From Leucoraja erinacea (lineage: Eukaryota), in NCBI RefSeq assembly GCF_028641065.1, contig NC_073404.1, positions 22,630,001 through 22,694,000 of the forward strand: DNA of 64,000 nucleotides. Reading direction: 5' to 3'. The translations under genes were made by a program, and so were the position numbers. The number at the start of each line of letters is the position of its first letter. Position 1 is the stretch's first letter. The notes beneath the pieces are model-generated. The model did no database searches and was not told where the DNA came from. It saw nothing but the letters and a program-made list of their open reading frames with translations. Below, in pieces: positions 11,902-63,279 of the stretch.

Positions 11902-11904
11902 GGT

Positions 11905-14666: not shown

Positions 14667-15232
14667 AAGGCAGACAAAAATGCCGGAGAAACTCGGCGGG
14701 TGAGGCAGCATCTATGAAGCGAAGGAAATAGGCAACGTTTCGGGTCGAAACCCTTCTTCAATGATGTGAGGGGGGGGGGGGGGGGGGGGAAGAAAGGAAG
14801 AGGAGGAGCCAGTGGGCTGAGGGAGAGTAGAGAAGATACGAGGTGCTGCTCCTCCAATTTATGGTGGTCCTCACTCTGGCCATGGAGGAGGCCCAGGACA
14901 GAGAGGTCGGATTCGGAATGGGATGGGGTGTTGAAGTGCTGAGCCACCGGGAGATCAGTTTGGTTATTGCGAACCGAGCGGAGGTGTTGGGCGAAGCGAT
15001 CACCAAGCCTGCACTTGGTCTCACCGAAGTAGAGCTGTTGACATCCAGAGCAGCGGATGCAATAGATGAGGTTGGAGAAGGTGCAGGTGAACCTCTGCCG
15101 CACCTGGAAAGACTGCTTGGGTCCTTGAATGGAGTCATGGGGGGAGGTAAAGCGACTAGTGTAGCATTTCTTGCGGTTGCAAGGGGAAGTGCCCGGAGAG
15201 TGGTTCAGGTGGAAAGGGACGAATTGAGTGAA
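14667..15232 (-). mobile_element. Penelope-like retroelement 3' fragment: GIY-YIG endonuclease plus terminal repeat
   Basis: NLIYCIRC...LYFGET..RLGDRFAQH..PVAQHFN (GIY-YIG), followed by the gaagaagggtttcgacccgaaacgttgcc repeat. Confidence 0.9.
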
Positions 15233-26700: not shown

Positions 26701-28444
26701 AGATGGGAAGATATGACTGGTGATGGAATCATGTTGGAGATGGCAGAAATGTCAGAGAACAATGTGTTGGATGTGGAGGCTGGTGAGGTGAAAGGCAATG
26801 ACCATGGGAATTCTGTCCTTGTTCTGTCTAGGGTCCTTAATTTGTGCTTTGTTTAACTCCTCCAAATTGGTGAGACCAAGAGCAGACTCTTTCCTCGGCC
26901 ACCTGACTCTATCTGCCAATCAATCCGTCCTCACCTGGATCCACAAAGCACTTGTCAATTCTTGCCCCATCCCTCCCTCTCACCTCTTTACCCTGGCTAC
27001 CACCCTTCTACTCTTTTAATCCAAATATGGGTATTGACTTGAAACGTTGAGTGTACAATTCCTTCCGTAGATGATGCCTTATCCGAGGAATTCCTCCAGC
27101 AGCTTGTATTTTTTTTCTTGATTCTATTTGTCAATACTTGTCATGCCCTCTCGTTTCTACATCATGTCCCTTTTATTATTATACAAAGTAACATCAGAGT
27201 AATATTGCTACACGAGCTTAAAAGCAGTGGGTGGCATTCAAGGAAGAGATACTGACTGATGTTTTGGATTGATTCATTACCATCGTTATTTTACAACTAC
27301 ACCATCGTTCAAAGACAAAACGTCAGATTCCACACCTATGTATCACATAGCTCTCACCTACAACCTATCTTTTCCTCCACTCTTTCCAGATTGAGGGTCT
27401 GCCTGATCACTATCCACCGGATTAGTTCAACAGACCATGGGTATGTAATTTCCAGAAAAAACAAGTAAGCTATCCCTCTTCTCTTACGTTTAGAAAAACT
27501 GAGAGGTGACAGATTTGTCTGAAACTATGGGGTGGGCTATTGATTATATTAACCTTCCCTAAATGTCATTGTGCTTTGGGAGCAAAATAACATTTTTGGT
27601 CATTTGCAAGTCTGAAGAAGGGTCTCGACCCAAAATGTCACCTATTCCTTTTCTCCAGAGATGCTGCCTTACCCGCTGAATTACTCCAGCTTTTTGTCTC
27701 ATGCCCAAGCAGCTTCTTATTTTGTGTCAAAGAACCATGTAGCAGGGAAACGGGCACTTCGGCCCAACTCTTCCATGATGACTATGCTTCATCTGAGCTT
27801 GTCCCATTTGCCTGCATTTTGGCCCATATTTTTCTGAACCTTTCCTATCCATTTACCTGTCTGACTGTTCCTGCCTCAACTACCTCCTCTGGCAGCTGGT
27901 GCCTCTGTTAACTCCTCTGGCAGCTCGTCTCATACACCCTCCACCTTGTGAGTAAAAACGGTGTCCCTTCAAGTTCCAGTAAATCTTTCCCCTCTCACCT
28001 TAAATCTGTCTTTTGGTTTTTGATTCCCCTAACTTGGGCAACCGACTGTACATGCACCCTATCTATTCCCCTTATGATTTTACACATCTATAAGATCATA
28101 TTTTGTGTTGAGAATGTTTCTATGAACTTGCTTTGAAGTCCTATTGAAGTATTGGTCGATGTGCTGGGCTTTGCTCTGTCCCCATTGACTGGGGGATGGA
28201 TAGTGGAGCGGCTGTCCAGTCCTCCGGCCGCTGGAGAGCGCTGGCGATCCCGCTCCATTCAAGGCCTCGGCCGCCGCCAATACCCGCAGACCGGCCGGCC
28301 ATTCAGCCCCTTACCGTCGCTGCTGCTGTTGCCACCGCCGCTCTCCTGCGGCAGGGTCTTTCGCGACCCGCTCACCACCACCGTGATGAGGAGAATGAGC
28401 GCCCCCAGGAACAGGGACAGGGCGACGACACCGAACGGCTCCAT
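17341..28444 (-). CDS. TBL2: Transducin beta-like protein 2 (N-terminal TM anchor plus WD40 repeats); 7 coding exons, 1335 nt, 444 aa
   Basis: Exon lengths 130+131+185+152+127+153+457 with GT-AG sites and consistent phases; motifs FTHPLLATSLKGHS, DFSSNGKYLASCADDRTVRIWSTKDFL, CGFTPDVKVWEV, ATVSKDGTWKLWDTDV recognised as TBL2. Confidence 0.95.
18527..20174 (+). mobile_element. Full-length Tc1 transposon (about 1.65 kb) with IR/DR-type long inverted repeats and a disrupted transposase (18891-19920)
   Basis: Inverted ends agtgccctc..gtttgggacaaagacc / ggtctttgtcccaaacattatggaggccattg; inner repeats near 18745 and 19955; GRPRKT, VKHGGGGVMAWACM, QQDNEPK, SPNLNPIE motifs; several stops and frameshifts; in TBL2 intron 6. 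Confidence 0.95.
20705..20932. mobile_element. Tigger/pogo-type MITE, TA TSD
   Basis: ta|caggttcacaatcttttatccgaaa ... tttcggataagagattgtgaacctg|ta. Confidence 0.88.
20935..21558 (+). mobile_element. L2-type LINE 3' end with (TTA)n tail
   Basis: LHWLPVRFRIDYKVLL, AFFNYAPKLWNTLP, FKRQLKTYLF; aataaagttattattatt tail. Confidence 0.85.
21580..23300 (-). mobile_element. Old CR1 LINE RT fragment, interrupted by a younger CR1 piece in the opposite orientation
   Basis: LYKTLVRPHFE on minus at about 21860; further eroded RT sequence at 22560-23250. Confidence 0.7.
22021..22520 (+). mobile_element. CR1 LINE 3' fragment (younger)
   Basis: VEYCVQFWSPNLRKDILA...LGLYTLEFRRMRG; SRTRGHSLRIRG. Confidence 0.9.
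23584..23736 (-). CDS. TBL2: TBL2 exon 6 (FVASCGFTPDVKVWEVCF...GHSAGIYSFSFSNDSR)
   Basis: 153 nt; gcag acceptor, gtaag donor, phase 2-2. Confidence 0.95.
24033..24159 (-). CDS. TBL2: TBL2 exon 5 (KFIMSASNDTTILIWDLKGEVL...VSPCG)
   Basis: 127 nt, GT-AG, phase 1-2. Confidence 0.95.
24663..24814 (-). CDS. TBL2: TBL2 exon 4 (AFIAWLANEETIRVFKMTKRDDGSF...NIGIAET)
   Basis: 152 nt, GT-AG, phase 2-1. Confidence 0.94.
25137..25321 (-). CDS. TBL2: TBL2 exon 3 (GHSANISCLDFSSNGKYLASCADD...FSPDS)
   Basis: 185 nt, GT-AG, phase 0-2. Confidence 0.95.
26200..26330 (-). CDS. TBL2: TBL2 exon 2 (DGKVSNG...FTHPLLATSLK)
   Basis: 131 nt; ttttatgcag acceptor, gtaag donor, phase 1-0. Confidence 0.93.
26560..27120. 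mobile_element. Degraded Penelope-like fragments
   Basis: Eroded PLE-like C-terminal coding sequence on minus (26560-26830) and a gaaacgtt...gatgatgcctt...ttcctccagca terminal-repeat remnant (27030-27110). Confidence 0.5.
27608..27700 (+). mobile_element. Penelope terminal repeat with CpG-decayed hammerhead core
   Basis: ctgaagaagggtctcgacccaaaatgtcacct. Confidence 0.8.
27730..28100 (-). mobile_element. CR1 LINE 3' end
   Basis: Reverse of the typical CR1 3' tail (cttcggcccaact...tcccatttgcctgcat...tctttcccctctcaccttaaa). Confidence 0.7.
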
Positions 28445-35320: not shown

Positions 35321-35443
35321 ATGAAACAATCTACATCTCCACCATCAATCACATCTCCATCTCAAACTGTGGCAATCAACAATGCTGCAGACATCAGCGT
35401 GATCACTGTGTACTTTGTGATAGTCATCGGCATCGGACTGTGG
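35321..35443 (+). CDS. SLC5A2: SLC5A exon 1 (MKQST...[22 protein letters not shown])
   Basis: acaATGa context, donor tgg|gtaagg; an alternative in-frame ATG lies at 35285. Confidence 0.85.
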
Positions 35444-38400
35444 GTAAGGATTTACTCCCTCAAACTTTTGGAATTATTTTCTACTTGCAATTTTTTCCTT
35501 GTGCGGAATGTGTAACACAATTGGCCATATTTTAATTCAATATTTATTCTCCATTTCTCTTCCTGAAGATCTGATCAGCCTGGCTCATTATTGGATCCAG
35601 TAAAACTACTGTAATTTTGGGATAACTTCTTGGTTCTCTGCATTGAAACAGTTTCACTCTGCCAGCCAGATGCAAGTAAGAATATTAGAAGTTGAAACAG
35701 AAGTAGGCTATTAGGATCTTGGTGCCTGCTCTGTAATTGAATAAGATCATGAATGATTATGTATCTCAGCTTCACGTAGCTGCACTAACCTCCATACCCC
35801 TTAATTTGCTTAATATGTTAACAACCTTTCCATTTCCGTCTTGAATCTACTCAACAACTGAGCCTCGAGAGTCTTCTTGGGTGGTGAATGCAAAGATTCT
35901 CATTTAAATGGTTAATCCCGTAATTTGAAACTGACCCCTAGTTCAGTATAGTTTAAGAAAGAACTGCAGATGCTGGAAAAATCGAAGGTAGACACAAATG
36001 CTGGAGAAACTCAGCGGGCGAGGCAGCATCTATGGAACGAAGGAATAGGTGACGTTTCGGGTCGAGACCCTTCAGTCTGAAGAAGGGTCTCGACCCAAAA
36101 TGTCACCTATTCCTTTGCTCCATAGATGCTGCCTCACCCGCTGAGTTTCTCCAGCATTTTTGTCTACCTAGTTCAGTGTACCTTAGTTTGGGTAAACATC
36201 ATCTACAAGATGTCTGCCCAATCACCAGATAATGCAAACTGGTTTGCTTAACCTCTCTTCATAAAACCAACCTACCATTTCAAGAGACACAAGAGACAGC
36301 AGATGCTGGAATATTGAGTAAAACACAAAGTCCTTGAGGAACTCAGCTGATCAGGGAACATTTGCCGAAGGAATAGACAGGCGACGTTTTGGGTCGGGAC
36401 CCTTATTCACCTGTTCATTCCTTCACCAGATGCTGGCTGTCCTGCTGAGTTCCTCCAGCACTGTGTGTTTTCTATCATTTCAGGAAATGATCTGGGTATG
36501 ATTTCCATTCTGCGCGATATTGAAAAACAGATGCACCGGCCACACTGTCTGCAGACTTACTGCTCAATTAGGAGTGGAATAGTGGAATACTATTCCACTC
36601 CCAACACTGGGATACAGTTCCACTGCTCCCATTGGGGATTTTATATCCTGTAGTTCCACATTAGAATACATGTTCATACCCAGTAACAAGAACTATTGCT
36701 CATGCAGTAATGTAAGATTACAGTATGGCTGCCTCTTCCTGAGGTACTTCCCACCGTTCCACATTGGGGTACTTGTAACCCACGTCCAATAGTCCTTTAG
36801 TACCATACTAGATTACTATCTTAGTGCTGTACCATTCCTTTGTCTGATAGTGAAGTACAGATCTTCTGATCTATCCGGGTTCTGCTTTGGGGTGCAGTTC
36901 CACAGCGTCACAGCGAGTAAAATTCCATTCTAATTGATATTCTTCCACTGTACTTAATTGAATACTGTTCCACTGCACATTACTAGATGCTGTTATACTG
37001 CCACCTACAGTGTACATTTCCGCTGCTCTTTACTGCATACTGTTTCACTGCCCCTTGCTGGGTGCATTTCCACTTCTCTTCATTGGGCACAGTTCCAGTG
37101 CCCATTACTGTGTACATTTCAACTGTCTCTTACTGAGGTTCAGATCAATAGACCCTGACTGGGTACACTTCCAATTTCACATACAAGGCACAATTTCACT
37201 GCCTCTTACTGACTCCATGCTCCTGAATCAAATAAGGAAGTTCCACTACCCCTTACTAGCTTCTGTTACAATGCCTTTTTATGGTTACAGTTCCACTACC
37301 ATTACATGTTATAATACTACTCTCCTCCATTGTGGGGTATTGTTCTGCTTCATCGTGGTTGGAAGTCCATCACCTCTTAATGGCTGCTATGAGTCTGAGC
37401 AAGACCTAAGGTATGAGCCCAGACAGCCTACTGTCTCCGCCTCTTCCTTTCTTCCCCCCCCCCTCCCCACTCCACATCAGTCTGAATAAGGGTCTCAACC
37501 GGAAATGTCGCCTATTCCTTCGCTCCATAGATGCTGCCTCACCTGCTGAGTTTCTCCAGCATTTTTGTCTACCCAGAATTCTTAACATCCGTATAATTGA
37601 ACCCTTGGGAAAGATACCTAGGTCCTCTATTATCAGAGCAATTTGCAGCAGTCGAATCTTTTGTAGGGATTATATGCCCTTTAGATGTAACCTAACTAAT
37701 TTACGTTGATGATTACAGCTATGTTCAGAATAAACTGTGGATTTATTTTTAGCGGAAGCCATGGGCTCACTCCACCTACCTCCTGTTGGCCAATTGGAAT
37801 AATGTTCCCTTCCTGTTTTAGGGTTGTACTTCAGTAACTGAAGGACCAATTCTGGGTCTGTTCTGATCCTTTTCATTTTACCTGAGGTGTATGGTTAAAA
37901 CACACACTATATGAAGTGCCTGGATTGCACCCTATTTCTCCAATTGACCTCAATATCTTTGGTAAAAATCGGACAGGTATTTTGCTCCTGGTCAGTTTTA
38001 GTAATGCCTACTCTGTGAACTAGGGCATCAGAGAAGGGCAGGGTTTAAGCACCAATGATTCTCCTCACAGCAAACATCTCACTCTTGTTCTTTGGCCAAT
38101 GGGTGTCCTCTTGAATGAGACTGTGGAAAGCACCCATCACCTATAGAATCCATTGCAGCAATGATCCATCCTCTCCAGAAATGGCTAGAAAATCAGAGGA
38201 AAGCATTTGGAAAAGCTTCAACCAATACTTTGGTACCAGTTGAGTGAGATTTTGTGAATTGATTTTAACATCAAGCAAACTTTGCAGGGCTAATCCTGAA
38301 GCTGCAATTCCTGTGCATATCTGGTCACGACTACATGGATTGAAGGAGGCATGTCAAATTATTCCATTTTTATGCCAGATGGAATGTAAATGCAGTTTCA

Positions 38401-41400
38401 TTTGAACCCTCTTTTGGATTTTGTACCAGCAATATTTTATGAACCCTCTTTAATCATAAATTAAAAAAAAACTTGAAACTAGTAACTTGGTAAGTGCATA
38501 GGAAGGAACTGCAGATGCTGGTTTACACTGAAGGTAGACACAAAATGCTAGAGTAAAGCATCTGTGGAAAGAAAAATGGTTAATTGGATCCAACCCTTAT
38601 CTGAATTCATAGTGTAGTGAGTCAGCTCTGACCGCACTATTGGCTGTTGGTGCTGTACTGATTAGAATATTCAAGTGTAGTACAAAGGCACTGTACATAG
38701 TCTCTATAGTATTCCTGGGATCTTGTTGATGATATTAGCTCCCTTATGCATTGCATAATAGTTATTTTGTACACTATTCCCCTCAGAATTGGTTGACAAT
38801 GTGCTTCATGTAAGTGTACACCTTGCACCTTACCAATGCAGTAACATGTTGACATTTGTTGGGATTAAAAATTGAAACAGGTCTGTTCATTTTAGAGCAT
38901 GGTGGGATTTTTCACAATGGGGGATCCAAGAACAAAATATAAAAGATTCCTGCAATAATTGCAAGAAAACAATATCTGACAAAGAGCTCTGATATTTATT
39001 GATTTTCAATGTAATAATGTTAGTGTTTACTACAAGGTAGACAAAAATGCTGGAGAAACTCAGTGGGTGAGGCAGCATCTATGGAACAAAGGAAATAGGC
39101 AACGTTTCGGGCTGAAACCCTTCTTCAGACCCGAAACGTTGCCTATTTCCTTCGCTCCATAGATGCTGCCTCACACGCTGAGTTTCTCCAGCATTTTTGT
39201 CTACCTTCGATTTTCCAGCATCTTCAGTTCCTTCTTAAACAAAAGTGTTTACTACAAGTGTCAGAACAACTAAAGTGAAAAGGAAGTAAAAAAATTGTTG
39301 AAAGAATCCCCTAAATCTTTCAGCAGCACAGAGGTTAACAATTTAAGTTATTACTGAATAGATAGGACATGGTTTATGAGTAGAACATCATCAATCTACA
39401 TTTCAGAATATTCCATCTGACCCTCGAAGAGTTCACAGAGCAGAGAGGTCAAAGGTCCCACAAATAATTACAAGGGAACATTACTGAGGAATTTTAATTG
39501 CTCCTCATTTAGCACAGTTGGCCATGTAAGCTAAAGATTCAAGAGATTTTTTGCATCAAATACTTTGTTTATTTAGTTTATTGACTGGAACAGGCCAATG
39601 CTTTGGAAGAAGTCCAGCAGAACAGTTCATGTGATCTGATATAAAGGCCAGTAAATAAAAATGCTTAGGAAAGAACTGCAGATGCTGGTTTAAATTGAAG
39701 GTAGACACAAAATGCTGGAGTAACTCAGCTGGGACAGGCAGCATCTCTGGAAAGAAGGAATGGGTGACGTTTCGGGTTGAGACCCTTCTTCAGACTAAAA
39801 TAAATGATATAAATCAAAATAAATAAATACATTCGGAGCAAATAAAAATGCTCCTCTTGTTTGAAGCTATTTCTACCAGAGATAGCCTAAACATTGCCAG
39901 GAAGATGCCATTAGCATTGGAGAATAGAAAAGCCACAAAATTATGTGAGGGTTTCCAAGAAGTACAGTAACACGTATTAAATTAACACGAGCACAACTGG
40001 AACTTAAGGAACTGTTTCTCTAAAACAAAGAAGTTTGTTTCCTATTCTTTATTCATCCTTTCACTTCTAGAATATTTACTGTTTTGAACATTCACCTCAA
40101 TCACTAAGTTTTGCCAGCTGTTGCAAACTGCCCATAGCAAGCACGATTACCTGCCCTTCGAAAAATTGAATACAATCTGATTTGTTGTCTATATATCTTG
40201 TTTATATTTTATTTAGTCCATGTTCAAGACCAACCGTGGAACAGTGGGTGGGTACTTCTTGGCCGGGAGGAACATGAAATGGTACACTGTAAGCGACTGC
40301 TATTTTATTGATTTAATTTATTTGATAACAGCTTATTAAATTATAGTAACTGCATTGTCAGAAATCTGACATCTTAAGGAAGCTAAAATTACCTTTGTGT
40401 TCATTCATGAAGATGCCACTGTTAAGCAATAGGTCGCAGTTGACAGACAAGTCACAGTCTAAATACATGAACATATAAATGGTTTAGATTGAATCAAAGT
40501 CTATAAGCAGCAGGAATTTGACTTTATGCTTTATGATTGCAAGCAGCAACAGGTAGCTTTTAAGCTGATTTGGACAAACCAGAAATTTCTCAATTATATT
40601 GGATTAATTTGGCCTGTTACGTAATCGCTGCATGCTCAAAATAGCCTCAACGTGTATAGAGCACAATACTTTTGTTTTGACAGCTAATTGTCCATTCTTG
40701 CATTAGAAATAAGTTTTAAGGACTTTTTCAGTGGCAAAAAAATCTCACTTTCTCAATTGCATTTCCAGGTTGGAGCCTCGCTTTTTGCCAGTAACATTGG
40801 AAGTGGCCACTTTGTTGGTTTGGCAGGCACAGGGGCAGCAAATGGGTTGGCAGTCGGTGGCTTTGAGTGGAATGTAAGTACAATGAGACAATTCAAAGAC
40901 ATTTAACATTTTAGGAATCTTGACTGGATCACTGGGATTCCATTTTCCTAAAGATGGGCCTCTTCATATATCCTGGTCAACTTGGCACAAGTTCTGTCCT
41001 GATGCTGGATCCCGTCCGCACTCAGATACTGACTTGAGGTTGATGAAGGGTCTCAACCTAAAAAGTTGCCCAGGGGAATTACTTACCCTGATGCCACCTG
41101 ACCTATTGAGTTCCTCCAGCACTTTATGCTTTGTTCAAGATTCCAGCATCTGCAGTTTTTTGTGTCTCCATTTTACTGCTCCATTGCAAATCTCCTCAAA
41201 CTATGCCTACTCTGAAGAAGTTCCAGGTGCGGCAGAGGTTCACCTGCACCTCCTCCAACCTCATCTATTGCATCCGTTGCTCTAGGTGTCAGCTGCTCTA
41301 CATCGGTAAGACCAAGCATAGGCTTCACCCAACACCTCCGCTCGGTTCGCAATAACCAACCTGATCTCCTGGTGGCTCAGTACTTCAACTCCCCCTCCCA

Positions 41401-44400
41401 TTCCGAATCCGACCTTTCTGTCCTGGGCCTCCTCCATGGCCAGAGTGAGGTCCACCGTAAATTGGAGGAGTAGCACCTCATATTTTGCTTGGATAGTTTA
41501 CACCCCAGCGGTATGAACAATGACTTCTCCAATTTTAGGTAGTCCCTGCTTTCTCCTTCTTTACCATCCCCTTCCCAGCTCTCCCACAGCCCACTGTCTC
41601 TGCCTCTTCCTTTCTTCTTCCTGCCACCTCCGCCTCCACATCAGTCTGAAGAAGAGTTTCGACCCGAAACGTGGCCTATTTCCTTCACTCCATAGAACCT
41701 GCCTCACCCGCTGAGTTTTTCCAGCACTTTGCCTACCTTCAATTTTCCAACATTTTCCTTCTTAAACAACTGAATAAGTTCTCCTCCTCTCTCTGACAGG
41801 GGTTCTGTGAGACCCCCTCACACTGCTCCTCCACTGTGATTCCCACTGCTCTCCCGCTGTTCAGGTCTGAAGAAGGAACACAACCAAAAACGTTCCCTTT
41901 CAAACCCTTTCCCAGATACTCCTGAACTCTTCAACACTTTAGGCCTTGCTCAAGATTACAGCACCTGCAGTTTCTAGTGTATTTATTATCCTACTCTCAT
42001 CAATTATCTTTGCATCTTCTATATTCATTTATTTAGACCCTGAGGAATCAGATGCATACATCCCATGTCAATTGGATATGGCGCCTTTGATGAAACTTGT
42101 TTAAAGTTTGTCACCACATAGCTGCTTCTTTAGACTTTAGACTTTACTTTAGACTCTGGAGGTACAGAGCAGCTCGCCGTGCCGACCAGCAATCACCCCG
42201 TACACTAGCACTATCCTACACACTGATGACAATTTTCAATTTCACCAAAGACATTCCTTCCCCATCTGCTTGAACCCATTTTTCCCCTAAAAGCATCACA
42301 TTCCTGAGTTTTTCTCCCCATTTTCAAGTGACAATCAATTCATACATGGTATCACCTAATCATAATTCTTCTGGTTTGTTCACCAAAGTCATACGCAGGG
42401 ACACTAGTTCTGGTTTACTTGGTGCAAGATCGAAGATTTACGGATTCTTGGAACACAACAGGAACCTCGTTGCTGTGCCCCAGTATAGATTCATATTGAC
42501 ATAATCCTCCCTCGTGTTCACACCAACTTTAGTGATGTCTTGTACTCTGTCCCCTTCTCATAACTCTCTTGGTCGACAAAATGTGGAATGATCTGTCATA
42601 TTTAACATTGGGATTTGTTTCCCACAGGCCTTGTTTATTGTGCTACTTCTGGGTTGGCTTTTTGTTCCAGTGTACCTGACAGCTGGGGTAAGTATGAGAC
42701 TATTTCAAATGAACTGTTTCAGCAGTTGTTTCAGACAGCTATTAGACGATACATGGAAATATGCAAATTACAAATGACAGGTATAGGAATATTATATACA
42801 ATATGTAGTATGTACTATATACAAAAATATATACCAAGATGCAAAAATCAAATATCAGAGGGCATAGATTTAAAGTGAGAGGGGCAAAGTTTAAAGGAGA
42901 TGAGCGGAGAAACTTACACAGAGGGTGGTGAGTGCCAGGAACATGCTGCCAGGGTTGGTGGTTGGTGGTTAAGGCGGAGGAATATGAATTATGCGCAGGT
43001 AGATAAGAGCTGGTCTTGGCATCATGTTCGGCATATACACTCTGGGCCAAAGGGCCTGATCTTGTGCTGTACTGTTCTCTTTCTATGTTCTAATCTTTCT
43101 CCAGAGGATTGATTCAAACACAATCTCCAAAATGGAAGGACTCTATACCCAACACATTGTGTCACCTAGGGTTCTGAAGCTGCATTCAATGCTGGATTTC
43201 ATAAGTGAAAAGATAGTGGGGTTAATATGGATTTTAATTCTTGTGAGTGAAAATAATTGAGCAGCATTTCATATAGATTTTCTCTTTGTAATTCGCAGCA
43301 ATTTCAAAATATTGATCTCATCCCTTGTACATATCATCATGTAGTCAAAAATAAAGGTGACATTTGGTTCATTTGAATGTTTCTGGGAAATTATTTTCCT
43401 GTGTAATCAAATACTGGCTTAGGTTTTTAACTTTGAATTTGTTGATTCAGTAACTAGGCAAAAATGCTTGGACATTATTTGATAATTTCACCTGTGCCTT
43501 TTCCCAGGTCATCACCATGCCACAGTACCTAATGAAAAGGTTCGGAGGAAACCGAATTAGACTGTACCTCTCCCTCATTTCTCTTTTCCTTTACATATTT
43601 ACCAAGATTTCGGTAAGTATCTCATCATGTGCACATGACATTCAGGCAGGTCTCCGATGTGACACCTGCTCATAAAAGTTGTTCTTATGGGGAAATGTAT
43701 TCTTTAAGAATGCCCGATAGTCAAACGCTGTTTATGAAAGGATTTCCAGGATACCAGAAGGGTTAAGGTTCCCATTGGGAAGACTCCTGTTAATTGATGT
43801 TTATTTACTGATGGTGATATGTTGTGTTTTCGCTGACAGGTGGACATGTTCTCTGGAGCAGTTTTCATCCAACAAGCTTTGGGGTGGAACATCTATGTTG
43901 CAGTAATTGCATTGCTGATTATTACTTGTATCTACACTGTCTCAGGTAGGCACTAAAGATCAGACAGAGGAATATTGAGTTTACATGAAGCATTCTGTAG
44001 GCTGCCACTCCAGAAAATGGACAATACAAATTGTGATTAGTTAAGATGTCAGAGGGAGGATTGGAGGGAAGATTGGGGAAGATTAGCTACTAGGGCCCTG
44101 TGAGGTTTGGTAGTTCAGGGAGAATGGACTATGATTGGGCGATAGCCGTTGCGGGTTTGTCAGTAATAGATGATCAGTCGGGATGAGAAGGGGAATGGTC
44201 AGGAAGAGGAATTGATCATTGGAAGGGAAGTCGGTAGTTGGTGGGGTATTGGCACTTGGTTGTTTGTGGTACTGGGAGGGTCTAGATTGAGAAAGCAGAT
44301 TGATGGAGGTATTGGTGAAGTAATATTGACAGATCACTAGTCTGGATTGGATTAGGTCAGTAGGTTTGGTGGGGCTGGGCAAGGGTGACGCTTGGTGAAC

Positions 44401-47400
44401 TTCACTACCAGGTTTGGGGGATGGAACTGGGACACAAGGACGTGTTTGATTAGTATATTACTTAAAGAGGCAACCATGAGATGAGATTATAGAAGTGGCT
44501 CAGAACCTTTTCAGGCAAGGTCCATATGTGATTGCACATATCCATGTCCTTTCTTCATTATTGCATATGTTGCATTTGAAATCTGGAATGTAAATCAAGG
44601 ACTCTGTGCATTACACAGAGAGTTTCAGTTTACCTTTTATTTTTCATTCTGTAGTGCACAGTAGCACGTCAGTACTTGGTCTAACCTCTGGATAGTTATG
44701 TCCCCCATTCCTCTTCTCTTCTCCTCACCAATAGGATGATCCCACTGTAATGCTGATGTCACCATTGATGGAAAGAACCAGATGTAGCATCTTCATGAAA
44801 TGAATGATAAACTTCTGCAGTATTTCCAGAATGATAATCTGTTCCAGTCAATAAACTAACATCTTAATGAGGGTCATTGACATGATGTTCTTCTTTAATT
44901 TTTAGCTTACGCTGATATTTGTGCTAAGTGTCCAGGAAATTAAAATTCCTCAATAATATAATTATTCTTTTGACCTTTGACTCTTGCACTCTGCCAGGAT
45001 TTTCTGGATCAAATGGAATATTCTGAAATGCTACTGATAATGTTTTTACTCATAAATTAAGTACGCTACTTGCCATCCTAGTAATAAATTGCACGTTTAA
45101 CCTTTAAGCTGTAAGAACATTTGAGATAACTGCAGAATTCTAGGGTTTTTTTCTTTCGAGGTCAATTCTTTTTTATGGCTGAGCAAACTTGGAATGGAAA
45201 TCAAATAATTCTACATAAACTTCAGGAAAACTGTTCAAAATTTATAATACCTCTAATGTGATCTCCTCTACAAATAGGCAAGCCAAAGAGAGATAGGGTC
45301 AGCACTTCAGGATACTGCTTTGTTCAATCCACAAGGGTGACTCCGAGCTTACAGTGCCTGTCACTTTAATTCTTCATCCCACTCTCACTCTTTAAGGCCA
45401 GTAGATAGGCCTGTTCGGTGAACTTTTGTAACTTTGTCGGTGCCAAATCGTGGCGACACTTGTGTACTGCCTAGGTGAGGTCTGCTACATGATTTTACTG
45501 GGATGTATGCAAATCAAAGCATTTCACTGTACCTAGGTTGACTATTGTTGAATTGTGGAACGGGCAATCCTCATTCACTCCCTGACTCTTTCATGCTCTG
45601 TGACTAATGAACGTATACGATCTAGATGCTGCCTCAGTCATAAAGGATGGTGAAAGGTGATGTAATATTGTGGTGGGAATGGGATGGGGAAGAGGGAGGG
45701 TAGGTGCCCAATGGGAAAATACTAGAGTGATTTCTGCAGGGCCATTTGATCTCGTCCTGTGCAGTAGGTTGTTGGAGAGAGAGAGACATATTATCTCCCC
45801 AGTATCTCAAATACCCTCTCACCCACAGGGAAACTCAACAGCAGACAATTGGCAAACAATAGCAGACAGTTGGCAAATCAAATATTAAGAAGATTTGAGT
45901 GATTTAATAAGGTTCTCCTCAGCAGTGGAGCCTCAAGAATCGTGGTCCGAGATGGAAGAGGAGAACCATTTAGCAAAGATGCATCATCCCTTGAAAGGGA
46001 TTGCACAGTGGAAAAGGCACATGTCCTGTTTTTGTGTAATATCTGTTTATCTTTGGTTGCAGGAGGCCTGGCTGCATTGATGTACACGGACACAGTACAG
46101 ACATTTGTGATCATTGCTGGAGCTTTTGTGCTGATGGGATACTGTAAGAAGGTCATCCTTTATACCTTGCAGATAAGAAAGCATTACACATTTGCCCTCT
46201 TCCCCTCAGTGCTTCACCAAGCTTTAACTATAAGTGACTGAGCCAACTAGACTAGGAAGGGCCCAGGCCCTGCACTGATCTCAGAAAGGGTAAGCGATTG
46301 GCTCCATTGTGATCTCAGTGTTCCTGGGTTAGCAAAACCCTTCTAATCAGTATCAAGTAACTGCTCCTGGAAAGTACATGTGTGGATTTGAGTTTGGACC
46401 CAATGATGATGTCTTCTACTATGGTGACTTTCTGGCAGTAACTGTATGGATCAGGTATAAGAGAACATCTGGTTCTTATGAGGTAGTGGAGAGGACAAGA
46501 GATGAGAAGACACCCACTTCTCATACCAGACATGAAGAATGCTGAATTGTTCTTGTTATTTTACATTTCCTTTCTTACAAATCTTATGTGTATTTTCTCT
46601 TTATCATTTTGCCCAGCATCTTGGGCGTGGAAATAATGAAAACAGCAATTTGTTATGTAGTGTCACAAAGTGCCCCAAAAGAGGTTATTAAAAAAAAAAG
46701 AGCACTTGGGATTGGCCGTAATGTACTTAAATAAATTGAGAAATGGTCAAAGGACAGAACACAGAGAGTTGGAATAAAGATCTTGAGACATAGGAGCAGG
46801 ATTAGGCCAATAGGCCCATGGAGTCTGCTCCGCCATTCGATCGTGGCTGATCTATTTTCCCTCTCAACCCCATTCTCCTGTCTTTTCCCCATAACCTTTG
46901 ACACCCAAACAAATCAAAAACTATCAATCTCCGCTTCAAGAATATCCAAAGACTTGGCCTCCACCACCAATAAATTCCACAGATTCACCACTCTCCGGTT
47001 AAGTTCTTCCTTGGGGTGAAAGGATGATGTAAAGTTGGGAACCGAGAACTAGCAGGGATTGGGAATCAGTGTGTGTAAGGACAAGTCAGTCATCTAGTAG
47101 AATAATTGACGTTACCAAATCCAAGCATGAATGGATGGCAAATAGGCTAAAGGATGCAAATCAAGTTACTGCTGAGGAATTTATGGTAGAGTGAGGCAGT
47201 CTATTGAGAGGATGCATTAGGTTTAATGTTGTGATCATTACTGTTTCTAAAGTACATAAATGGTGTGAATATAATAATTTTATTCAGTTGCTTAACTTTT
47301 CTAAACAATAAAGGTCAGAGGCAGCTCAGGATATGTGAAGAATAAAATACGCTGGTGGTCAGAGAACCTGCAGATGAATGTATCTGTGTATACATTTAAA

Positions 47401-50400
47401 TGTTGCACGTAGCATGGATAACAGACAGATTCTAATGATGTTGTTTCAAGAGACAGACCAATGCTGAGCATAATCAGCAAAGGCATCGGAACATTGAACT
47501 ACATTGTCTGAACTGTGGGATATCAAGTAAAGTAGAAGTAATCAAACTTTATGGTGCTATGGTAACATCTTCGATTTTATGTTCAATTCTTGTTGCCAAG
47601 TAACAAGACATTTAAGTATTGGAGACATGAGTGACAGGAAATATGAATGTGATCTCTGGAGAATGTCGGGATTCTTCAACCTATTAAGTAATCTGACAAG
47701 TAATTTTACAGAGATTAATTCATACAGTTGATATTAGAAATAATACAAATACATTATATATTTAAATTTAGTAGTACTGGATCAAGGTCACAAAAAGTGA
47801 TAATTGTGGAATAAACTTCCAGCTGAAGATGGAATACAGAAGGAAGTAGGGCTCTAGGATCTTTATTAATGGTTTAATTAAATTGATTTGATGAGTAAGG
47901 GTGTTAGGGGTTATGGGGAGAAGGCAGGAGAATGAGGTTGAGAGCAAAAGATAGATCAGCCATGATTAAATGGCTGAGTAGACATGATGGGCCGAATGAC
48001 CTAATTCTGCTCCTAAAACCTATGAACGTGTCAGAGGCATTCGTCTCCTGTAATTACTTTGCAAATTTCCCATTAATGCATTGATTTCTTTTTTGCTTCT
48101 CACAGCTTTCCATGAAGTTGGGGGCTATCAGGCATTGTTTGCCAAGTACAAGGATGCCGTGCCAATTCTTCATGATTCAATAGATCCTTCCCGCTATAAC
48201 ATCTCTGACAAGTGCTATCTTCCTCGTGCTGACGCATTCAATCTTCTGCGAGATGCAGTCAGTGGCGACTTACCCTGGCCAGGATTGATCTTTGGTATAA
48301 GCATCATTGGAGTTTGGTTCTGGTGCAGTGATCAGGTAAGTTGCTGAGTAGCCAATATGACTTTGATCCCCAGGCCTCAACAAATTATTTCCTTTTAGAA
48401 ACTTCTCCACAAGCATCCGTATACATCTGCCCTTTCACCTGTGGATTTAAATAATTGGTGTGTTAAGTACACTGTTCTTCCCTAAAATAATGGAATCAAT
48501 CTTTCAATTCTTCACTGACAATATATTATTAGGCTTCAGGCAATAACAGACTTGTCCCTATGATACAATCTGATGCATGCCCAAGAAGTGAAGCATCAAA
48601 TTATATCTAAGAGGAGATCGGATGTGAGTAGGAGGGGGAATAACGAAGATGATGGAAGATATAATCAATGAGTTTTCATGAGATAATGGACCCGAATGAC
48701 AAACAGAATAGTGCTATTAATGGTGAGACAGGATGGCATAGGGTGCATATTAACGTATGAATGAGAGGAGTGGAAAATCGAGTATAACTGCTAGAATGGT
48801 GAGGTACACACTGGAGAAACAACAGATTACAGATGCTGGAAATCAGAAGTAAAGTTAAATCAAACTGAGTACAGATGACTCGTCGTGACCCAAAATGTTG
48901 ATTATCCATTTCCCTTCACAGATGCTGCAACCTGCTGAGTTCCTCTAGCAGATTGTTTTTGCATTAATTTTAGACTACTTCAGATATTTCTCCCATTTTT
49001 TTTTTTAATATGCATCTCTTCCAGGTCATCATCCAACGATGCTTAGCTGCTAAGAACCTGACACACGTGAAGGCTGGTTGTGTTCTATGTGGTTACATAA
49101 AGTTGTTGCCCATGTATCTGATGGTCTTGCCGGGCATGATCAGTCGAATTCTATACCCAGGTAAGGTTTCTTTATCAAATGGCTATTTATTCCATGCATG
49201 AACATTTCTGTGAGGAAACATGAAAACTAAAAATGTTACAGATTATTGCTGAGGCCTTCCCTCAGGTTAGCACTCAGCTGGATTAGTGTGGTGTAGATTG
49301 GTTCAAGAACCTGATACTGACCGGAGATGAGGGTGGAAGTTGAAGGGCGTTAATTAGCCAGCGAGGTGAACGGTAATAAAATGGGGGTAATTGCTCAGAG
49401 TGCTCTATCTGGTCGAGCAATATTTATGTGACAAAGAGTTTTATTCTTTCCAGCATGTCAATCAATAGTTGATTAAAATTTGGGATAATACTAAATGGTT
49501 TCATTATAAGGAGTTAATTTGGGACATTTTTTGAAACAGCAATGCAGTTCATTCTAAAGAGCTTCCATTTTGTCCCGTAGATGAGGTTGCATGTGTTGTG
49601 CCAGAGGAATGTGAGAAGATATGTGGCACTCCAGTTGGTTGCTCGAACATTGCCTACCCAAAGATGGTGGTTGCCCTGATGCCCAAGGGTAAACAATCTG
49701 TTTCACTGTAACCAAGCTACAAATAGCTCAAATTGTATTCCCCCCCTCTCCCTGAAGCTTCTCTGTGTTCAATTTAGAATTTATCTCACCAATTCCTCTG
49801 GCTGTTGCTGCTCTCTTTTCACCTGCATGGATGCTGACTGCCCTCTGGTATATTACCTGTACCTTGCGTAAGGGAAATTAATTCATTGAAAGAGAAATCA
49901 TAATGGATCACGATTCCATATCAATCAATTGCAAAACATACAGCACTTTCCCACAGTGGTCTATGAGCATTGATCATAACCTTACCACAGCCTCATTGGA
50001 GCCAATTGCAACCTTAGTAAGGTAGTTATCCCTCCCTGCCACTCACTGCATGATAGAGTACTGCTCAATCGTAAATAAGTGTGCTCAACTTCTCATTTCA
50101 ACTCAGAGATCTCCTTCAGTTCTTAAGGGACTCTTTACATCACTCCACTCCTCCCTTAATACTTCAGTATTAAAATCCAAATTTGGTGCTATGATTTTAA
50201 TATTTCTTTATTTCTATTATCTTCACCTACTTTTTACATTTTAATCCTGTGCCTTGCCTTTAATTTGGTGTAGAATGCCACTGTTTTTGGAGACTAATCA
50301 TCTTAGCTCTACAATGTGAGTTGCTCAGGTTAGAGTCCTAGGCTCACCCATCTCCAGCTGACTTGCTGATGGTCATAGATAGACACAAAATGCTGGAGTA

Positions 50401-53400
50401 ACTCAATGGGACAGGCATCATCTCTGGAACTTTTTACATTTTAATCCTGAGCCTTGTCTTTAATTTGAGAGAGAATGCCACTGTGGTTGGAAACTAATCA
50501 TCTTATCTCCAGAGATCTCTTTGATCCAGAGATGCTGCCTGTCCTGCTGAGTTACTCCAGCATTTTGTGTCTGTCTTCAGTGTAAATCTGCACCTGCAAT
50601 TCCTTCCAACACCACTGATGGCCATCATTAGATCATAATAATAATAATATATTTTATTGTCATTGCACACAAGTGCAACGAGATTTGGTATGCAGCTTCC
50701 ATCCGATGTCATAACTTAAATAACTAATACAATTTAGATTTAGATACCCCGAGAACATGGTTTGTAAAAAGAACATTAAAACAGTAAAACAGTCAAAACA
50801 GTGGATCAACAAACTTTTATTCAGAGGTGAAGCTAAGCAGGCATGGACTAATGCATCATACGGTTATAAAAGTGGCCACCAGTTTAAGTATAAATGGGTC
50901 AAAACTGCAATGTTAGTGGTACAACTCTACTGGAGTTCTCTACTCTACTGGTGAAAACAAGTAAATTACTTTTATACCTGAATTTAATCATCAATTATCT
51001 ATTTGTAGCAATTTGATAGAACTGAATGGTGTGCCAGATCATTTCAAAGAGCATTACTGTGGGTCTGGAATCAATGGCAGGCCAGGGAAAGGTAAAAATC
51101 CTCTAGAGGGATATTAATAAATCAAGTAGACTTTTACAACAATCCAGTAACCTCATGAATCAAGATACTAGGTTTTTATTCTCAGCATACTTCATTCACT
51201 GAATTTAAATTGCCTAGTTTACGAGATGACCTTTGTACTCATGTCTCTGTGTTAACAGTCCAGGTCTCTGCGTTGCTAGTTCAGTAGCATAATTTGGATG
51301 CAAATGTTCCCAAGCAGTCTATCCTAATCTTCGCACTGTTCCCAGTATGTCTACATTTTACATCTACACTTTCCCCATTGTGTCCTTTTTATATATACCC
51401 ATAGTTTTCAGGTGGTACTTTATTCATCCTCAATGTGTAAGAAGGAACTGCAGATGCTGGTTTAAACTGAAGATAGACACAAAAATTTGGAGTAATTCTG
51501 TGGGTCAAACAGCATCTCTGGAGAATATGAATAGGTGGCGTTTCAGGTCTGAAGAAAGGTCTCAATCCGCAACTTCACCTATTCTCCAGAGATGCTGTTC
51601 GACCCGCTGAGTTACTCCAGCTTTTTGTGTTCATCCATACTGAGTTGTTCTGGTGGCAGATTGTTGCTATTGTTCAGTATGTCTCCTTGATGCATGATTA
51701 ATTTAAATTTGCTTGGCTCCCCTGTACAGGGCTTCGTGGTTTAATGCTTGCAGTTATGCTAGCAGCTCTCATGAGTTCACTGGCATCCATCTTCAATAGC
51801 AGCAGCACTCTCTTCACCATGGACATCTGGGCAAGAATCCGGAAGGAAGCCAGCAACAAGGAACTAATGATTGTTGGCAGGTGAATGGTCATTAACAGAA
51901 TCAAAGAAATGTTTCGCAAGAGAATTACAGACGAATGAAGACATTTTGGCACATCACAGCTCATCAATCTTGAAGATATTAACCCCTGCAACATTTTGAT
52001 TGTTAGTTAAATAATTCCAGGAATTTTAGTTCACTGCAGCCGGAAATAATTACACATGTTGCTCATTGTTCGAAAGATTGAGTGAATTATCTTCTTCTAA
52101 TCTTACTGGCTGTACATGGCTACATTTTGACCGCAGTGCCATTACAATCACAAAGTCATATGCAACCTCTCTTTCTACATTATCTTATTCTTAAATATCA
52201 TGGCTAGGATTTATTTCAGGAAACAGTGCAAAAGAGGAATCAAGGGTACAAATTGATGTTTGTCTATTGCTTTACAATTGTTTACTTATGTTTGGTTACT
52301 TCATATATGAAGTTTGTATGTGTATAATAGTTGTATGTATATATATGTCTGTAGGTATTATGGAAAATTGCCTGGGGTAGTATTATTATTATTAATTAAT
52401 TGATTTTTAAATATGGTAGAAGTGTTGGGGAAAAGGGGTGAGATTTAATAAGTTATTCTTCTTCTCACTCCTTTTCGAGCTTGTACAGACAGAGTTGGAC
52501 ATTGGAAATTTGCTTTTTGTTCTTTTCATTGCTTGTAAATATTGATTGTAATGTCCAATTGTTTGATAATTTCGATTTTGTTACTATTAATGTCTTTAAT
52601 GTCTTTACTTGTTCGGAATAAATAAAATAAATAAATAAATAAATAAATAAATGTACATATGCAAAATAGAACTAATCATAGCAACAGGTATGAATCGCAA
52701 ATTTCCTTGTTCTGTTCCTCAGGATCTGGATTCTCTGTATTGTCACGATCAGCATTGCATGGATACCTGTGGTCCAGGCAGCACAAAGTGGACAACTCTT
52801 CGACTATATCCAGTCTGTCACCAGTTACTTGGCACCACCCATTGGCGCAGTTGTCCTGCTAGGTGTCTTTGTGAAAAGGATCAATGAGCCAGTAAGTAGC
52901 TATTCTGATATAAGAGTGACTGATGGAAATGTATAATATCCTATTCATCTCCAGATTGATCCCTTATCATTCCCAGAACAAATACAACATGTTAGATACA
53001 ATGTGAAGCACCTGCCATACTTCCCTTTGAGACACACATTAGCCAGGTGCACAAAGTGTTGGGCATGGATCAACCGGGTTCAATATTTTAAAGAAAATGT
53101 GGTATAGTTCTAATGAAGGGGTCTCAAATTTGGAACATAAACCAAATACCCTGAGTTACACACCTCGTATCGACCTGGCTGTTGATGGATATATCAGGTC
53201 TGAGAGTGGAGCTTATCTTTGTGATGGGCAGGTAAAGATGAATGCTGATGACCAGAAGTTCTGCCCTTCACAACAGAATTGGAACTGATTTGAACAAGTA
53301 TGAACGGAGAATAAGCTACCTGCCATAGAGAGCGCCCATAGTCTGAAAGACTGTTGTCTTTTCATTTATATTTTTTCTGTCAGCTGTGCTTCTGAGCAAG

Positions 53401-56400
53401 ATTCTGAAAGCTGCCTTTCTCTAGTTTCAGGCAAGGAAATCATCTTCTCCCCTTCCTTCTATTAAGGAACTGTAATTATGCAATTTAAATTGCCGTGGAT
53501 ATTTTCATAATTTATCAATAAAATGAAGTCAGAAATAGAGCAGAAGTCTGTGGAAATTAAAGGAGTCAGAATAAGTACACAAGAAAAAAGTAGTAACTAA
53601 ACCTGGGAGGTACTCTGTCACTGGGAGTACAGACAATGCAACTACTTCTTGAATCTACCCTGGTGACAGGTTACTTTCACTGTATAACCTCCTCATTCCC
53701 AGTATCTGCTCCTCCTCCATGACCGGCATTTGACTGAATAAGTGAAACAGTGGCTGACGATACAAACCGTTGCCAAACAGTGGACGAACCAGACTCTTGA
53801 TTTTTTTTCCTTCTCCTGTGTTAATATTTTTCAGAGGAATTGGAACCAATGTTCAATTTTCTCTCAATGTTCATCTTGCACTTCCCCAGTGATGTTCTTC
53901 CTGGATTCCTGAGAGTCATGGAGTAAGAGCCACAATCCTACAAATTAGGGCGGCACACAGGGCCAGAGGCCAGGGTGTGACTGTGTGAAGTTTGCACGTT
54001 CTCCCTGTGAGCACGTGGGTGTCCTCTGGCTGCTCCGGTTTCCTCCCACTTCCCAAAGATGTGCGGGTGTGTAGGTTAATTGGCCTCTGTAAATTCTCCC
54101 TCGTGTGTAGGCAGTGGATGATAAAGTGGGATGACGTAGAACTGGTGTGAATGAGTAAATTCACTTCACTGCACCTTATGGTGCATGTGACAAATACATT
54201 TGAAATTGATTTCATTTGATTGATAGTCGGCATGGACTTAGTGAGTTGAAGAGCCTATTTCTATGCTGTATTTTTCAATCAATCATCAATCAAGTTACTC
54301 CTCGTTGTTTTGACTTATTCCAATGGGTGCTGGAGAGACATATAACCTTACTTTGATTCATTGAGATACACAATACTCATTTTCCACCCTGCTTTGCTTA
54401 AAAGGATAACTGTCTTAAATTTTAAAGGATCCTTAGATGATTAAAAGATCCTCAGATAATTACTTTTTCTGATAATTATACTAATGGAGTGGTTATTTCT
54501 TTAGTTCTTTCACTAAACTACACTTTAAGACTTTCATGGTTTCCTTCGCCTGAAGTTAGATTAAAACTGAGTAATGAATCAGTCTTTCCATGCTTAATAT
54601 CTGATTTTCCATAAGTAAAAACCCTCTCAGAGGTGATAGAGGATTATGATTAACATGCAGGCTTGTCCCAAAAATTACTTACTGCCATTGGTTTATAGGA
54701 TTGTTAGTAACTTTAATAATAATTGCTATAGATGAGCATACTTGCTGCTAGTTGTGATTTTACTCTGCAGGGTGCCTTCTGGGGTTTGATCGGAGGTCTG
54801 GCCATGGGTCTCTGTCGCATGATAGCCGAGTTTGTCTATGGCACGGGCAGCTGCATCTTCCCATCCTCTTGCCCCTTTATCTTCTGTGGCATCCACTACC
54901 TCCATTTTGCCATCATTTTGTTCAGCTGCACATGTATCCTGGTCCTCATCATCTCCTTCTGCACTCCAAAGATCGAAGAAAAACATGTGAGTTTTTGTTG
55001 ATTATTAATTGGCTTCTATTTCACAACGAAGAAAGGCATAATATTTATCGCAATGTGCTTGTCTCATTAACTATTTTTATCTTTCTATTTCCGATAGCAG
55101 CAGGAGTAACCCATTTGCGTCATCAATCAATATAATTCTGATGGACAGAAAATGCTGAAGAAACTCAGCAGGAGATGCAGCATCTATGGAGAGAAGGAAT
55201 AGGCGATGTTTCAGGTCGAGACCCTTCTTCAGTCTGAGTGCACCTTGGTGTACAAGTTCATCTGAAGAAGGGTCTCAACCCGAAACGTCGCCTATTCCTT
55301 CTTTCCAAAGATGCTGCCTCACCCGCTGAGTTTCTCCAGCATTTTTTTGTCTACATTCAATTGTTCCACCATCTGCAGTTATTTCTTAAATATAATTCTG
55401 GTCTTCTTCTACCTCACCACACTTCCTCACATTCCTTAATACCTTAATTCCTTAGTAGCTTCACTGTCAGAATTTTTAAGTCTTAAAAATGTGGTAACTG
55501 AGCACCTGAAATAGAGAGTAGTGATATTGTGATTTATTATTGTCATGTGCAACAAGATACCGTGGGCTATCCAGTTAAATAATACACAAATGCAACAGGT
55601 AAGTGCAGAAAGTAAAAGGAAACTGAGTGCCGCATATAGTGTTACAGCTACAGAGGAAGTGCAGATGAAAAAGATTGCAAGATTGGGTGATCGATAATAG
55701 AGGATTTTTTGTGCGACTGGTTGGCTGTGGCTAGAGAAGTTTAATTGGGATCAGTTTTGGCGCCCTTGCAGTTTGTACATGAATGGTTTGGATGTCGATG
55801 AAGAAGGCATGATCAGGAAGTTTGCAGTTGCCACTTTTGGTGAAGTTGTTGATATCGTGGAGAGTTGTCATAGGATATAGAATGATGCCGATGAAATTGG
55901 CTGAGAAATGGCAGATGGAGTTTAATCCAGATAATTGTGGTGTACAAGTCCATCTGTAACCAGTTCTCAGTCCATGTTGATGTCCCATGAGCCCTAATTA
56001 TGTGCCTCTTGTGTGGCATTTTCTCTTGTGAATTTTATCAATCAGATGTGCTGCATCTACTTCTCTTTATCTGTTGATCTGCGATTGGCTCAGTTTAAAT
56101 TTCTCATGGTAAAAGATACTGATAGAAGAAAGGAGAAAAAAGAGAATGAGAGAGAGTTTGAGTTTTTGTTTAATTTATTGTCACATGTACTAAGGTACAG
56201 GGAAAGCTTTTGTTGCGTGTTAACCTGTTTGCGGAAAGACAATATACATGATTACAATTGAGCCGTCTACAGTGTACAGATGCACGATCAAGGGAATAAC
56301 ATGAATAATATTTAGTGCAAGATAAAGCCAGTAGAGTCCGATCAAAGATAGTCCAAGGGTCTCCAATTAAGTAAGTAGTAGTTCAGGACTGCTCTTTAGT

Positions 56401-62569: not shown

Positions 62570-62734
62570 CTTTGCACCGGTCGCTCTGCTGGAGCGGCGA
62601 TCCTCGGACCGCCGGAGGAGGCAATCGCAGCACATTTGGATCCTGCAATTGGAGGTGAATGTCAGGCGGGCGGCGTGACGCAGCGCATCCCGGGGGTAAG
62701 TGGCGTTGAAGAGGCCCGACACGTAGCGCTCAGT

Positions 62735-62940
62735 TACACAGAAAAGCTGGAGAAACTCAGCGGGTGCAGCAGCATCTATGGAGCGAAGGAAATAGGCAAC
62801 GTTTCGGGCCGAAACCCTTGGTTTCGGCCCGAAACGTTGCCTATTTCCTTCGCTCCATAGATGCTGCTGCACCCGCTGAGTTTCTCCAGCTTTTCTGTGT
62901 AACCTTCGATTCTCCAGCATCTGCAGTTCCCTCTTAAACA
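62735..62940. mobile_element. Very young Penelope-derived palindrome with 14-bp TSD
   Basis: TSD acgtagcgctcagt at 62721-62734 and 62941-62954; arms of about 80 bp that look identical by eye, CpGs intact. Confidence 0.92.
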
Positions 62941-63279
62941 ACGTAGCGCTCAGTGCCGGCTGAATGAAATCAGGATGTAAACTGATACAATGTATTCCCC
63001 TCCCCGGGTACTGGCTCCGGGCGGCACCACCGCCACGACTGGCGGCTGCCCGCAGCCCTAGGTCTAATGCATGTCTGGCTGCCCCGTGTCCTTGTTTGCA
63101 CCGAGTGACTGACTGTTTCTAAAACCCCTTGAGTTTCTCCAACACTTGTGTCTACCTTCGAGTTTCCAGCATCTGCAGTTCCTTCTGAAACATTGTAGCG
63201 AGTTCCCCAACTCCCTACCCCAGGGGAACGGAGGTGCTCAAATCTCACCCTTCCGACCCAATGATTATTGCTTCCGACT

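Follow-up and report, generated by a model that had tools for sequence, protein, structure and literature searches.

A minimal hammerhead core at the head of a Penelope-like pseudo-LTR, likely spread passively as 5'-truncated insertions

The 64-kb window, the whole stretch of DNA analysed here, contains a family of short repeats that carry a minimal type I hammerhead core. In our reading, to which we give a probability of about 85%, this core heads a pseudo-LTR that belongs to a Penelope-like retroelement, likely of the Neptune clade, and its copies have likely spread passively as 5'-truncated insertions predicted not to self-cleave alone. What is found is the minimal hammerhead of Penelope-like elements in a known arrangement, described in 2014, and it extends that observation to a skate-type genome, with a family that covers 5.5% of the window.

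Hammerhead cores and the repeat that carries them

The headline core runs on the minus strand from C3 at 39793 to C17 at 39766 (standard numbering), and the original prediction gave the 35 nt at 39762-39796 (minus) without error. Its parts are as follows.

39766..39793, minus: minimal type I hammerhead core, with the predicted cut 3' of C17 (39766)
39793-39787, 39786, and 39785-39782 with 39777-39774, minus: CUGAAGA, the extra A, and stem II
39773-39770, 39770-39767 and 39766, minus: GAAA, the palindromic ACGU, and C17
39795-39794 with 39765-39764, minus: stem I, 2 bp only

The proposal that this is a hammerhead core of the minimal type, in which an ACGU palindrome replaces helix III and an extra A follows A9, is upheld. 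A structural descriptor (core, stem II of at least 3 bp, helix-III closing pair and UH) applied to the whole window identifies four intact motifs, at 39766-39793, 39101-39128 and 13461-13488 on the minus strand and at 55262-55289 on the plus strand, versus a mean of 0.21 (maximum 2) in 100 dinucleotide shuffles of the window; the four are copies of one repeat, not independent occurrences, and count as a single event. A search with hammerhead models had been proposed together with the original prediction. It succeeded with this descriptor and failed with the covariance models of Rfam, which gave no hammerhead-family match for the whole window at E up to 5, nor for 39640-39860 at E up to 10. On the inverted pairs of the family, Rfam returns weak miRNA-hairpin matches only, all under gathering scores.

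The core (C3 U4 G5 A6 N7 G8 A9...G12 A13 A14 A15.1...U16.1 H17) is complete in 4 of 17 core-spanning arms, the headline copy included. All four intact copies have the ACGU palindrome (15.2-16.2) and no loop 3, and A15.1-U16.1 is present in each of the 16 aligned rows. An extra nucleotide follows A9, and helix II, 89% paired over the 16 aligned copies, opens with a 10.1-11.1 pair that is G-C in 11 and G-U in 2 of them. The second intact core expected at 55262-55289 (plus) and the expected GUU-triplet variant, which lies at 39101-39128 (minus), are both present. Decayed copies also exist where they had been noticed: C3 is changed at 14740, the copies at 27612 and 36077 have G12A, that at 37482 has G8U, position 17 is G at 41645, and both A13 and 16.2 are changed at 51549. 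The 13470 copy had been counted among the decayed ones, but its core is intact (GUU), though without stem I.

The hammerhead stands at the head of a unit of ~135-140 bp, delimited by a search of the window with a profile built from five window copies. The profile matches 37 arms at 27 loci (3,512 bases, 5.5% of the window), confirming the suspected high-copy family, and none in the reversed window, which served as control. The density is one locus per 2.4 kb; 17 of the loci are single arms and 10 are head-to-head pairs. Twenty of the 37 arms begin at profile positions 2-10, and the core begins at position 6. In the public run X1, 269,054 contigs match the unit, with a summed depth of 1.7-1.9e7 versus 25-60 in unique flank, where summed contig depth is not copy number and gives an order of magnitude only. 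The four public runs are contigs, with X15 and X19 guessed to be RNA, and are silent on expression, strand and RNA ends. Contig depth and window density together point to a family of ~10^5-10^6 copies genome-wide. The main copies in the window are listed here.

39666..39796, minus: whole unit (pseudo-LTR with tail), antisense in the first intron of SLC5A2; contig loose ends at 39666 and 39796
39653..39665 and 39840-39852, unstranded: AT-rich 13-bp direct repeat, likely a target-site duplication
55141..55394, unstranded: head-to-head inverted insertion; plus arm 55259-55394 with the intact core 55262-55289, tail-less minus arm, 12-bp flanking repeat
39028..39244, unstranded: head-to-head inverted insertion; intact GUU core 39101-39128 (minus), GTC-overlap joint, 15-bp flanking repeat
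13374..13579, unstranded: head-to-head inverted insertion; intact GUU core 13461-13488 (minus) without stem I, CAG-T-CTG joint
35947..36169, unstranded: head-to-head inverted insertion; CAG-T-CTG joint, 11-bp flanking repeat, both cores broken
51431..51631, unstranded: head-to-head inverted insertion; GTC joint, broken core, origin of the AGGU in the original prediction
62734..62942, unstranded: head-to-head inverted insertion; arms 98% identical, joint inside stem II (no CUGA), 14-bp flanking repeat
14662..15199, minus: longer 5'-truncated copy; linker zinc finger and GIY-YIG remnant (15199-14843), C/T-rich tract, tail-less pseudo-LTR (14760-14662, C3 changed)
41215..41772, plus: longer copy, truncated at its 5' end; the GIY-YIG remnant (41215-41539) is broken and is followed by a stop (41540-41542) and a C/T-rich tract of ~100 nt that ends in CAG
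41641-41772, plus: pseudo-LTR with tail of the preceding copy; core from 41646, G at position 17
37430..37573, plus: copy with its native C/T-rich upstream tract; tail-less pseudo-LTR, G8U
27609..27699, plus: single tail-less copy, G12A

At the headline locus, 43 AT-rich bases (39797-39839) separate the 5' end of the unit from the second flank repeat and adjoin a 6-bp inverted copy of the flank.

Link to a Penelope-like element and to known hammerheads

Two copies of the unit (14662-14760, minus, and 41641-41772, plus) follow protein remnants across a C/T-rich tract. The remnant has nine relatives among longer proteins, with 51-78% identity; the best is from little skate and the others are from rays and a shark, and one of them (P0003) fuses the RT end to the endonuclease. 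The alignment contains the GIY-YIG motif, a CxxC plus two His, and a CX4CxxC linker. This linker zinc finger is found in relatives P0001-P0003, and its last Cys is altered in the window copy. The Pfam GIY-YIG match is weak (E 0.023; 15.4 bits versus a curated cut-off of 22.6). In all four public runs there are contigs that span the join of endonuclease end and tract, or that of tract and core. Since the unit follows a GIY-YIG remnant in two copies, it is the pseudo-LTR of a Penelope-like element, and the adjoining endonuclease remnants show the Penelope-like link that had been put forward from the core alone. The 64-kb window holds no full-length element, and neither its RT nor its 5' pseudo-LTR.

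According to excerpts of PMC8557442, a CCHH motif occurs in Penelope-type endonucleases and a linker finger (CX2-5CxxC) in Neptune and Nematis. Neptune is preferred over Nematis because the survey in bioRxiv 10.64898/2026.07.22.740005, in its accessible part, reports only Neptune and Poseidon in vertebrates; judging from these sequence features, the element likely belongs to the Neptune clade.

The window also contains an older Penelope remnant, with a protein linker region at 26644-26823 (minus) and an old pseudo-LTR with its own C/T-rich tract at 27020-27107 (plus). Four chondrichthyan gene models (P0001, P0004, P0005 and P0006) contain the endonuclease piece, one of them named receptor-transporting protein 3-like and one mucin-2; here the piece is likely a mis-annotation or an exonised element. 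Pattern scans of metagenome, viral and prokaryote collections gave 0 matches. A scan with P0003 recovered 29 metagenome loci of distant relatives, none of which matches the window repeat profile and one of which has a minimal hammerhead, opposite in strand to its RT match. At L013:1583-1615 (minus), on a metagenome contig, there is a textbook minimal hammerhead with a stem II of 7 bp, a stem I of 4 bp and a palindromic helix III; a Penelope-type RT match lies ~1.2 kb away, on the other strand.

The consulted parts of PMC4209133 (Cervera and De la Pena 2014) report minimal hammerheads from three kinds of element (Xena, Poseidon and Neptune), within their pseudo-LTRs, mostly as dispersed singles with some close opposite-strand pairs; there the monomer gave no cleavage and dimers cleaved weakly. 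The window family shares with these hammerheads the complete core, the lack of a helix III loop, the palindromic 15.2-16.2, the extra base between 9 and 10.1, G10.1-C11.1, the site after the endonuclease, and the prevalence of dispersed singles alongside close opposite-strand pairs. It differs in helix II, which has 4 bp in the window versus 7-8 in Schistosoma, and in helix I, which has 2 bp versus the typical 4-5, although 2 bp are also given for D. virilis Penelope in the same source. As to density, the window has 27 loci in 64 kb, whereas that paper's excerpts credit the coelacanth and Xenopus genomes with 4,000-9,000 motifs each. Its text parts and supplement table that we examined make no mention of cartilaginous fishes. 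By title and abstract start we found no paper on the family in cartilaginous fishes; Repbase/Dfam or paper supplements may contain one.

A second comparison is with Poseidon of Anolis carolinensis, for which the available text of PMC11167929 (Frangieh et al. 2024) describes a protein-assisted ribozyme whose cleavage is dispensable for insertion in vitro. Shared features are the pseudo-LTR hammerhead, two 3' end points that delimit the tail, and AT-rich targets. Unlike Anolis Poseidon, as portrayed there, the window element has a linker zinc finger of the Neptune/Nematis type. The Anolis ORF starts at the ribozyme, whereas young window copies read CUGAAGA, with no AUG in the core.

Insertion anatomy and a possible route of spread

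All 10 head-to-head pairs are asymmetric, with one arm ending at profile positions 127-140 and the other at 88-114 (P = 0.002, even odds), and in each of them one arm only carries a tail of 30-40 bp. Flanking direct repeats of 11-15 bp are found at 5 of 15 loci examined; therefore each inverted pair is likely one insertion. A CAG-T-CTG micro-palindrome that straddles the 5' edge of the core is the joint at 13486 and 36072 and, with a spacer, at 55236. A GTC overlap is the joint at 39128 and 51549. Inverted 5'-truncated copies with a one-sided tail of 30-40 bp are described for Penelope-like elements in PMC8557442. The in vitro work of PMC11167929 mapped the tail to the interval that separates two RT start sites, and found nicking and extension on both strands of the DNA.

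This anatomy suggests how the copies could arise. The element protein would nick AT-rich DNA, and the RT would start ~100 or 135-140 nt downstream of the core 5' end, that is, without or with the tail. Most cDNAs would run through the core and end within a few bases of it on the upstream side, at or close to the C/T-rich tract. Where both strands are primed, a short overlap (CAG-T-CTG or GTC) could link the two cDNAs into a head-to-head pair in which one arm has the tail; such joining would be twin priming followed by annealing of both cDNA ends. The ribozyme would likely matter, if at all, only in the source-element RNA, as a dimer or with the element protein, and copies would decay once inserted. 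Stalling at the C-rich tract or short master copies may explain why the cDNAs end slightly upstream of the core instead of at the cut site.

Other origins of the 5' ends were considered and rejected. Only 2 of 37 arms begin at profile 33-35, as copies starting at the cleavage site would, and both lie at inversion junctions. No contig loose ends occur at the cut site among the best 24 of ~3,600 rows. If the C/T-rich tract were an intron (GT 41539 to CAG 41643) that sets the 5' end, a spliced joint would be expected; the best 15 of 1,372 joints include none. Removal of this intron would not repair stem I either, as by inspection the spliced join retains the same two pairs.

The strongest alternative, which we nevertheless consider rather improbable, is that the short unit is a non-autonomous element separate from the pseudo-LTR (retrozyme- or SINE-like), with its own masters, instead of a product of repeated truncation of a long RNA. 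Excerpts of PMC7229834 and bioRxiv 10.64898/2026.07.22.740005 present animal non-LTR retrozymes which, like the window unit, are short non-coding repeats with a type I hammerhead and ties to Penelope; the latter source reports that retrozymes derive from pseudo-LTRs, finds them in its one chondrichthyan and records cleavage in 1 of 9 Xenopus dimers. The 5' ends cluster sharply (20 of 37 arms), and the summed X1 depth is several-fold higher on the unit (1.7-1.9e7) than on the endonuclease part (1.2-3.9e6), both as a separate element would predict. Head-to-tail joints of ~131 bp are found in three of the four public runs (28 contigs in X1, 26 in X4 and 2 in X15) and show dimer-competent, retrozyme-like arrays elsewhere in such genomes, at low frequency. 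Yet retrozymes, as PMC7229834 portrays them in part, form head-to-tail arrays with classically canonical hammerheads, whereas the window has singles and head-to-head pairs with a minimal core, and none of its 27 loci is a head-to-tail array with a hammerhead per unit. The 5' ends are off the cleavage site, where a retrozyme monomer needs them, and the joints vary by locus, with the same joint in different subfamilies (39128 and 51549). Under this alternative, too, the unit is still a Penelope derivative.

Cleavage competence and the SLC5A2 host gene

Stem I is short in most intact copies. It has 2 bp in the headline copy, 1 bp in the 55262 copy and 0 in the 13488 copy; where the native upstream tract is retained, at 37.5 and 41.6 kb, it consists of 2 bp, two mismatches and 2 bp. 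The 39128 copy has a 4-bp stem I of other letters, which is a product of the inversion junction. Over four positions, 53% of helix I cells are paired in the 16 aligned copies. A 4-bp AGGU/ACCU stem I had been assembled by combining copies, but no intact copy has it: AGGU immediately precedes the core in two copies only, one at 51549, whose AGGU is the reverse complement of the adjacent inverted arm, and one at 41866, which is old and broken. Older arms read ACCUG after the cut site, which with the AGGU of 41866 leaves room for an ancestral stem I of 4-5 bp, again by combining copies.

Covariation in stems I and II, which the original prediction called for, does not exceed shuffles in the 16 aligned copies. 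One of 10 pairs is changed on both sides and 372 of 500 shuffles reach as high, a comparison to which 16 close copies lend little power; stem II has no covariation, with changes on one side only. Thirteen of the 17 core-spanning arms are broken. The catalytic G12 belongs to a CpG; 8 of 25 arms have it changed, versus 65 of 235 at other CpG positions. Core positions outside CpG are changed less than the unit body, with 3 of 107 versus 8.2 expected in 11 young arms (P = 0.038) and 10 of 184 versus 26.1 expected in 19 arms; these counts rest on arms that cover at least 8 of the 10 core columns, some changes at C3 were lost to edge trimming, and differences between subfamilies are not independent. 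The low non-CpG change counts against our reading and points to some constraint, which we place in the source lineage and not in the copies once inserted.

In the predicted folds the core pairs with the pyrimidine-rich stretch that follows it. Structures compatible with a hammerhead make up a share of 1.5e-4 in the headline copy and no more than 1.1e-3 in any of the eight copies folded, and a two-strand double hammerhead is predicted at -6.1 kcal/mol versus -19.1 for the best dimer fold, where the ViennaRNA energies omit tertiary contacts and protein help. On these models the scattered copies are likely inert.

Many of the copies lie within one gene.

35321..59912, plus: SLC5A2-like sodium/glucose cotransporter, a 675-aa protein mapped to 15 coding segments

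Its introns hold 20 of the 37 repeat arms, 12 sense and 8 antisense. Seven of the sense arms span the core, and one (55262) is intact. The original prediction placed copies on the sense strand of the SLC5A transcript, which holds for 55262 and fails for the headline copy; that copy and the core at 39.1 kb lie antisense in intron 1. The 55262 core is the right arm of an inverted pair and would lie in a predicted hairpin of ~100 bp (-150.8 kcal/mol) in the pre-mRNA. Six inverted pairs are found in SLC5A2 introns (35947-36169, 36292-36478, 39028-39244, 50368-50611, 51431-51631 and 55141-55394), and the three folded give predicted hairpins of -147 to -167 kcal/mol. Such intronic hairpins are possible substrates for A-to-I editing. 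Cleavage of the SLC5A2 pre-mRNA appears unlikely from the predicted folds, and the family matters little for SLC5A2.

It had further been proposed that the repeats are an active self-cleaving RNA family, whose sense copies would cut host pre-mRNAs such as SLC5A2 as inter-copy dimers or with protein. Four complete cores, a modest excess of conservation at non-CpG core positions and very many potential partners (269,054 X1 contigs) speak for it, as does the anole Penelope hammerhead, which cleaves with its protein according to the available portion of PMC11167929. We nevertheless regard this as very unlikely. The native stem I has 0-2 bp, G12 decays at the CpG rate, and the 16 aligned copies show no covariation. 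Only 1 of 7 core-spanning sense arms is intact, and that arm is predicted to pair with its own inverted arm in the -150.8 kcal/mol hairpin. The arms of a head-to-head pair are on opposite strands, so no double hammerhead is possible between them.

An origin of the palindromic forms as DNA-transposon MITEs, with a hammerhead match by chance, would fit the long terminal-to-centre inverted repeats, the flanking duplications and the absence of an Rfam hammerhead match, but is largely refuted, given that 17 of 27 loci are single arms, the tail makes the arms unequal, the duplications vary from 11 to 15 bp, the unit follows a GIY-YIG remnant (a known place for such ribozymes), and all four unforced traits in the PMC4209133 excerpts that are readable from one family are present, bar covariation.

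Returning to passive spread of a Penelope-like pseudo-LTR, a bolder reading, which we hold to be less likely than not, is that a skate-lineage Neptune-type element reached ~10^5-10^6 end pieces after its hammerhead lost most of stem I, and that the CAG-T-CTG 5' flank of the ribozyme became a twin-priming joint. If this were true, each copy in the genome would bear witness that Penelope spread can do without cleavage, and the introns would carry many dsRNA hairpins of ~100 bp (six in SLC5A2 alone), like inverted Alus. It would also offer a large natural data set on the need for the hammerhead in Penelope transposition and on the origin of inverted insertions; the function of Penelope hammerheads is called unclear in the consulted sections of PMC8557442.

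Several other features of the window were identified. On the minus strand, 17341-17853 holds a WD40 exon (Pfam) and 28259-28777 what is likely a first exon, its N-terminus hydrophobic; both may belong to a TBL2-like gene. A LINE-type reverse transcriptase remnant (RVT_1; 10232-11946, minus) is unrelated to the Penelope element. A Tc1/mariner transposase remnant (18530-20171) lies between 237-bp inverted repeats, and an AT-rich palindrome of ~137 bp at 61810-61946, outside the hammerhead repeat family, is possibly a MITE.
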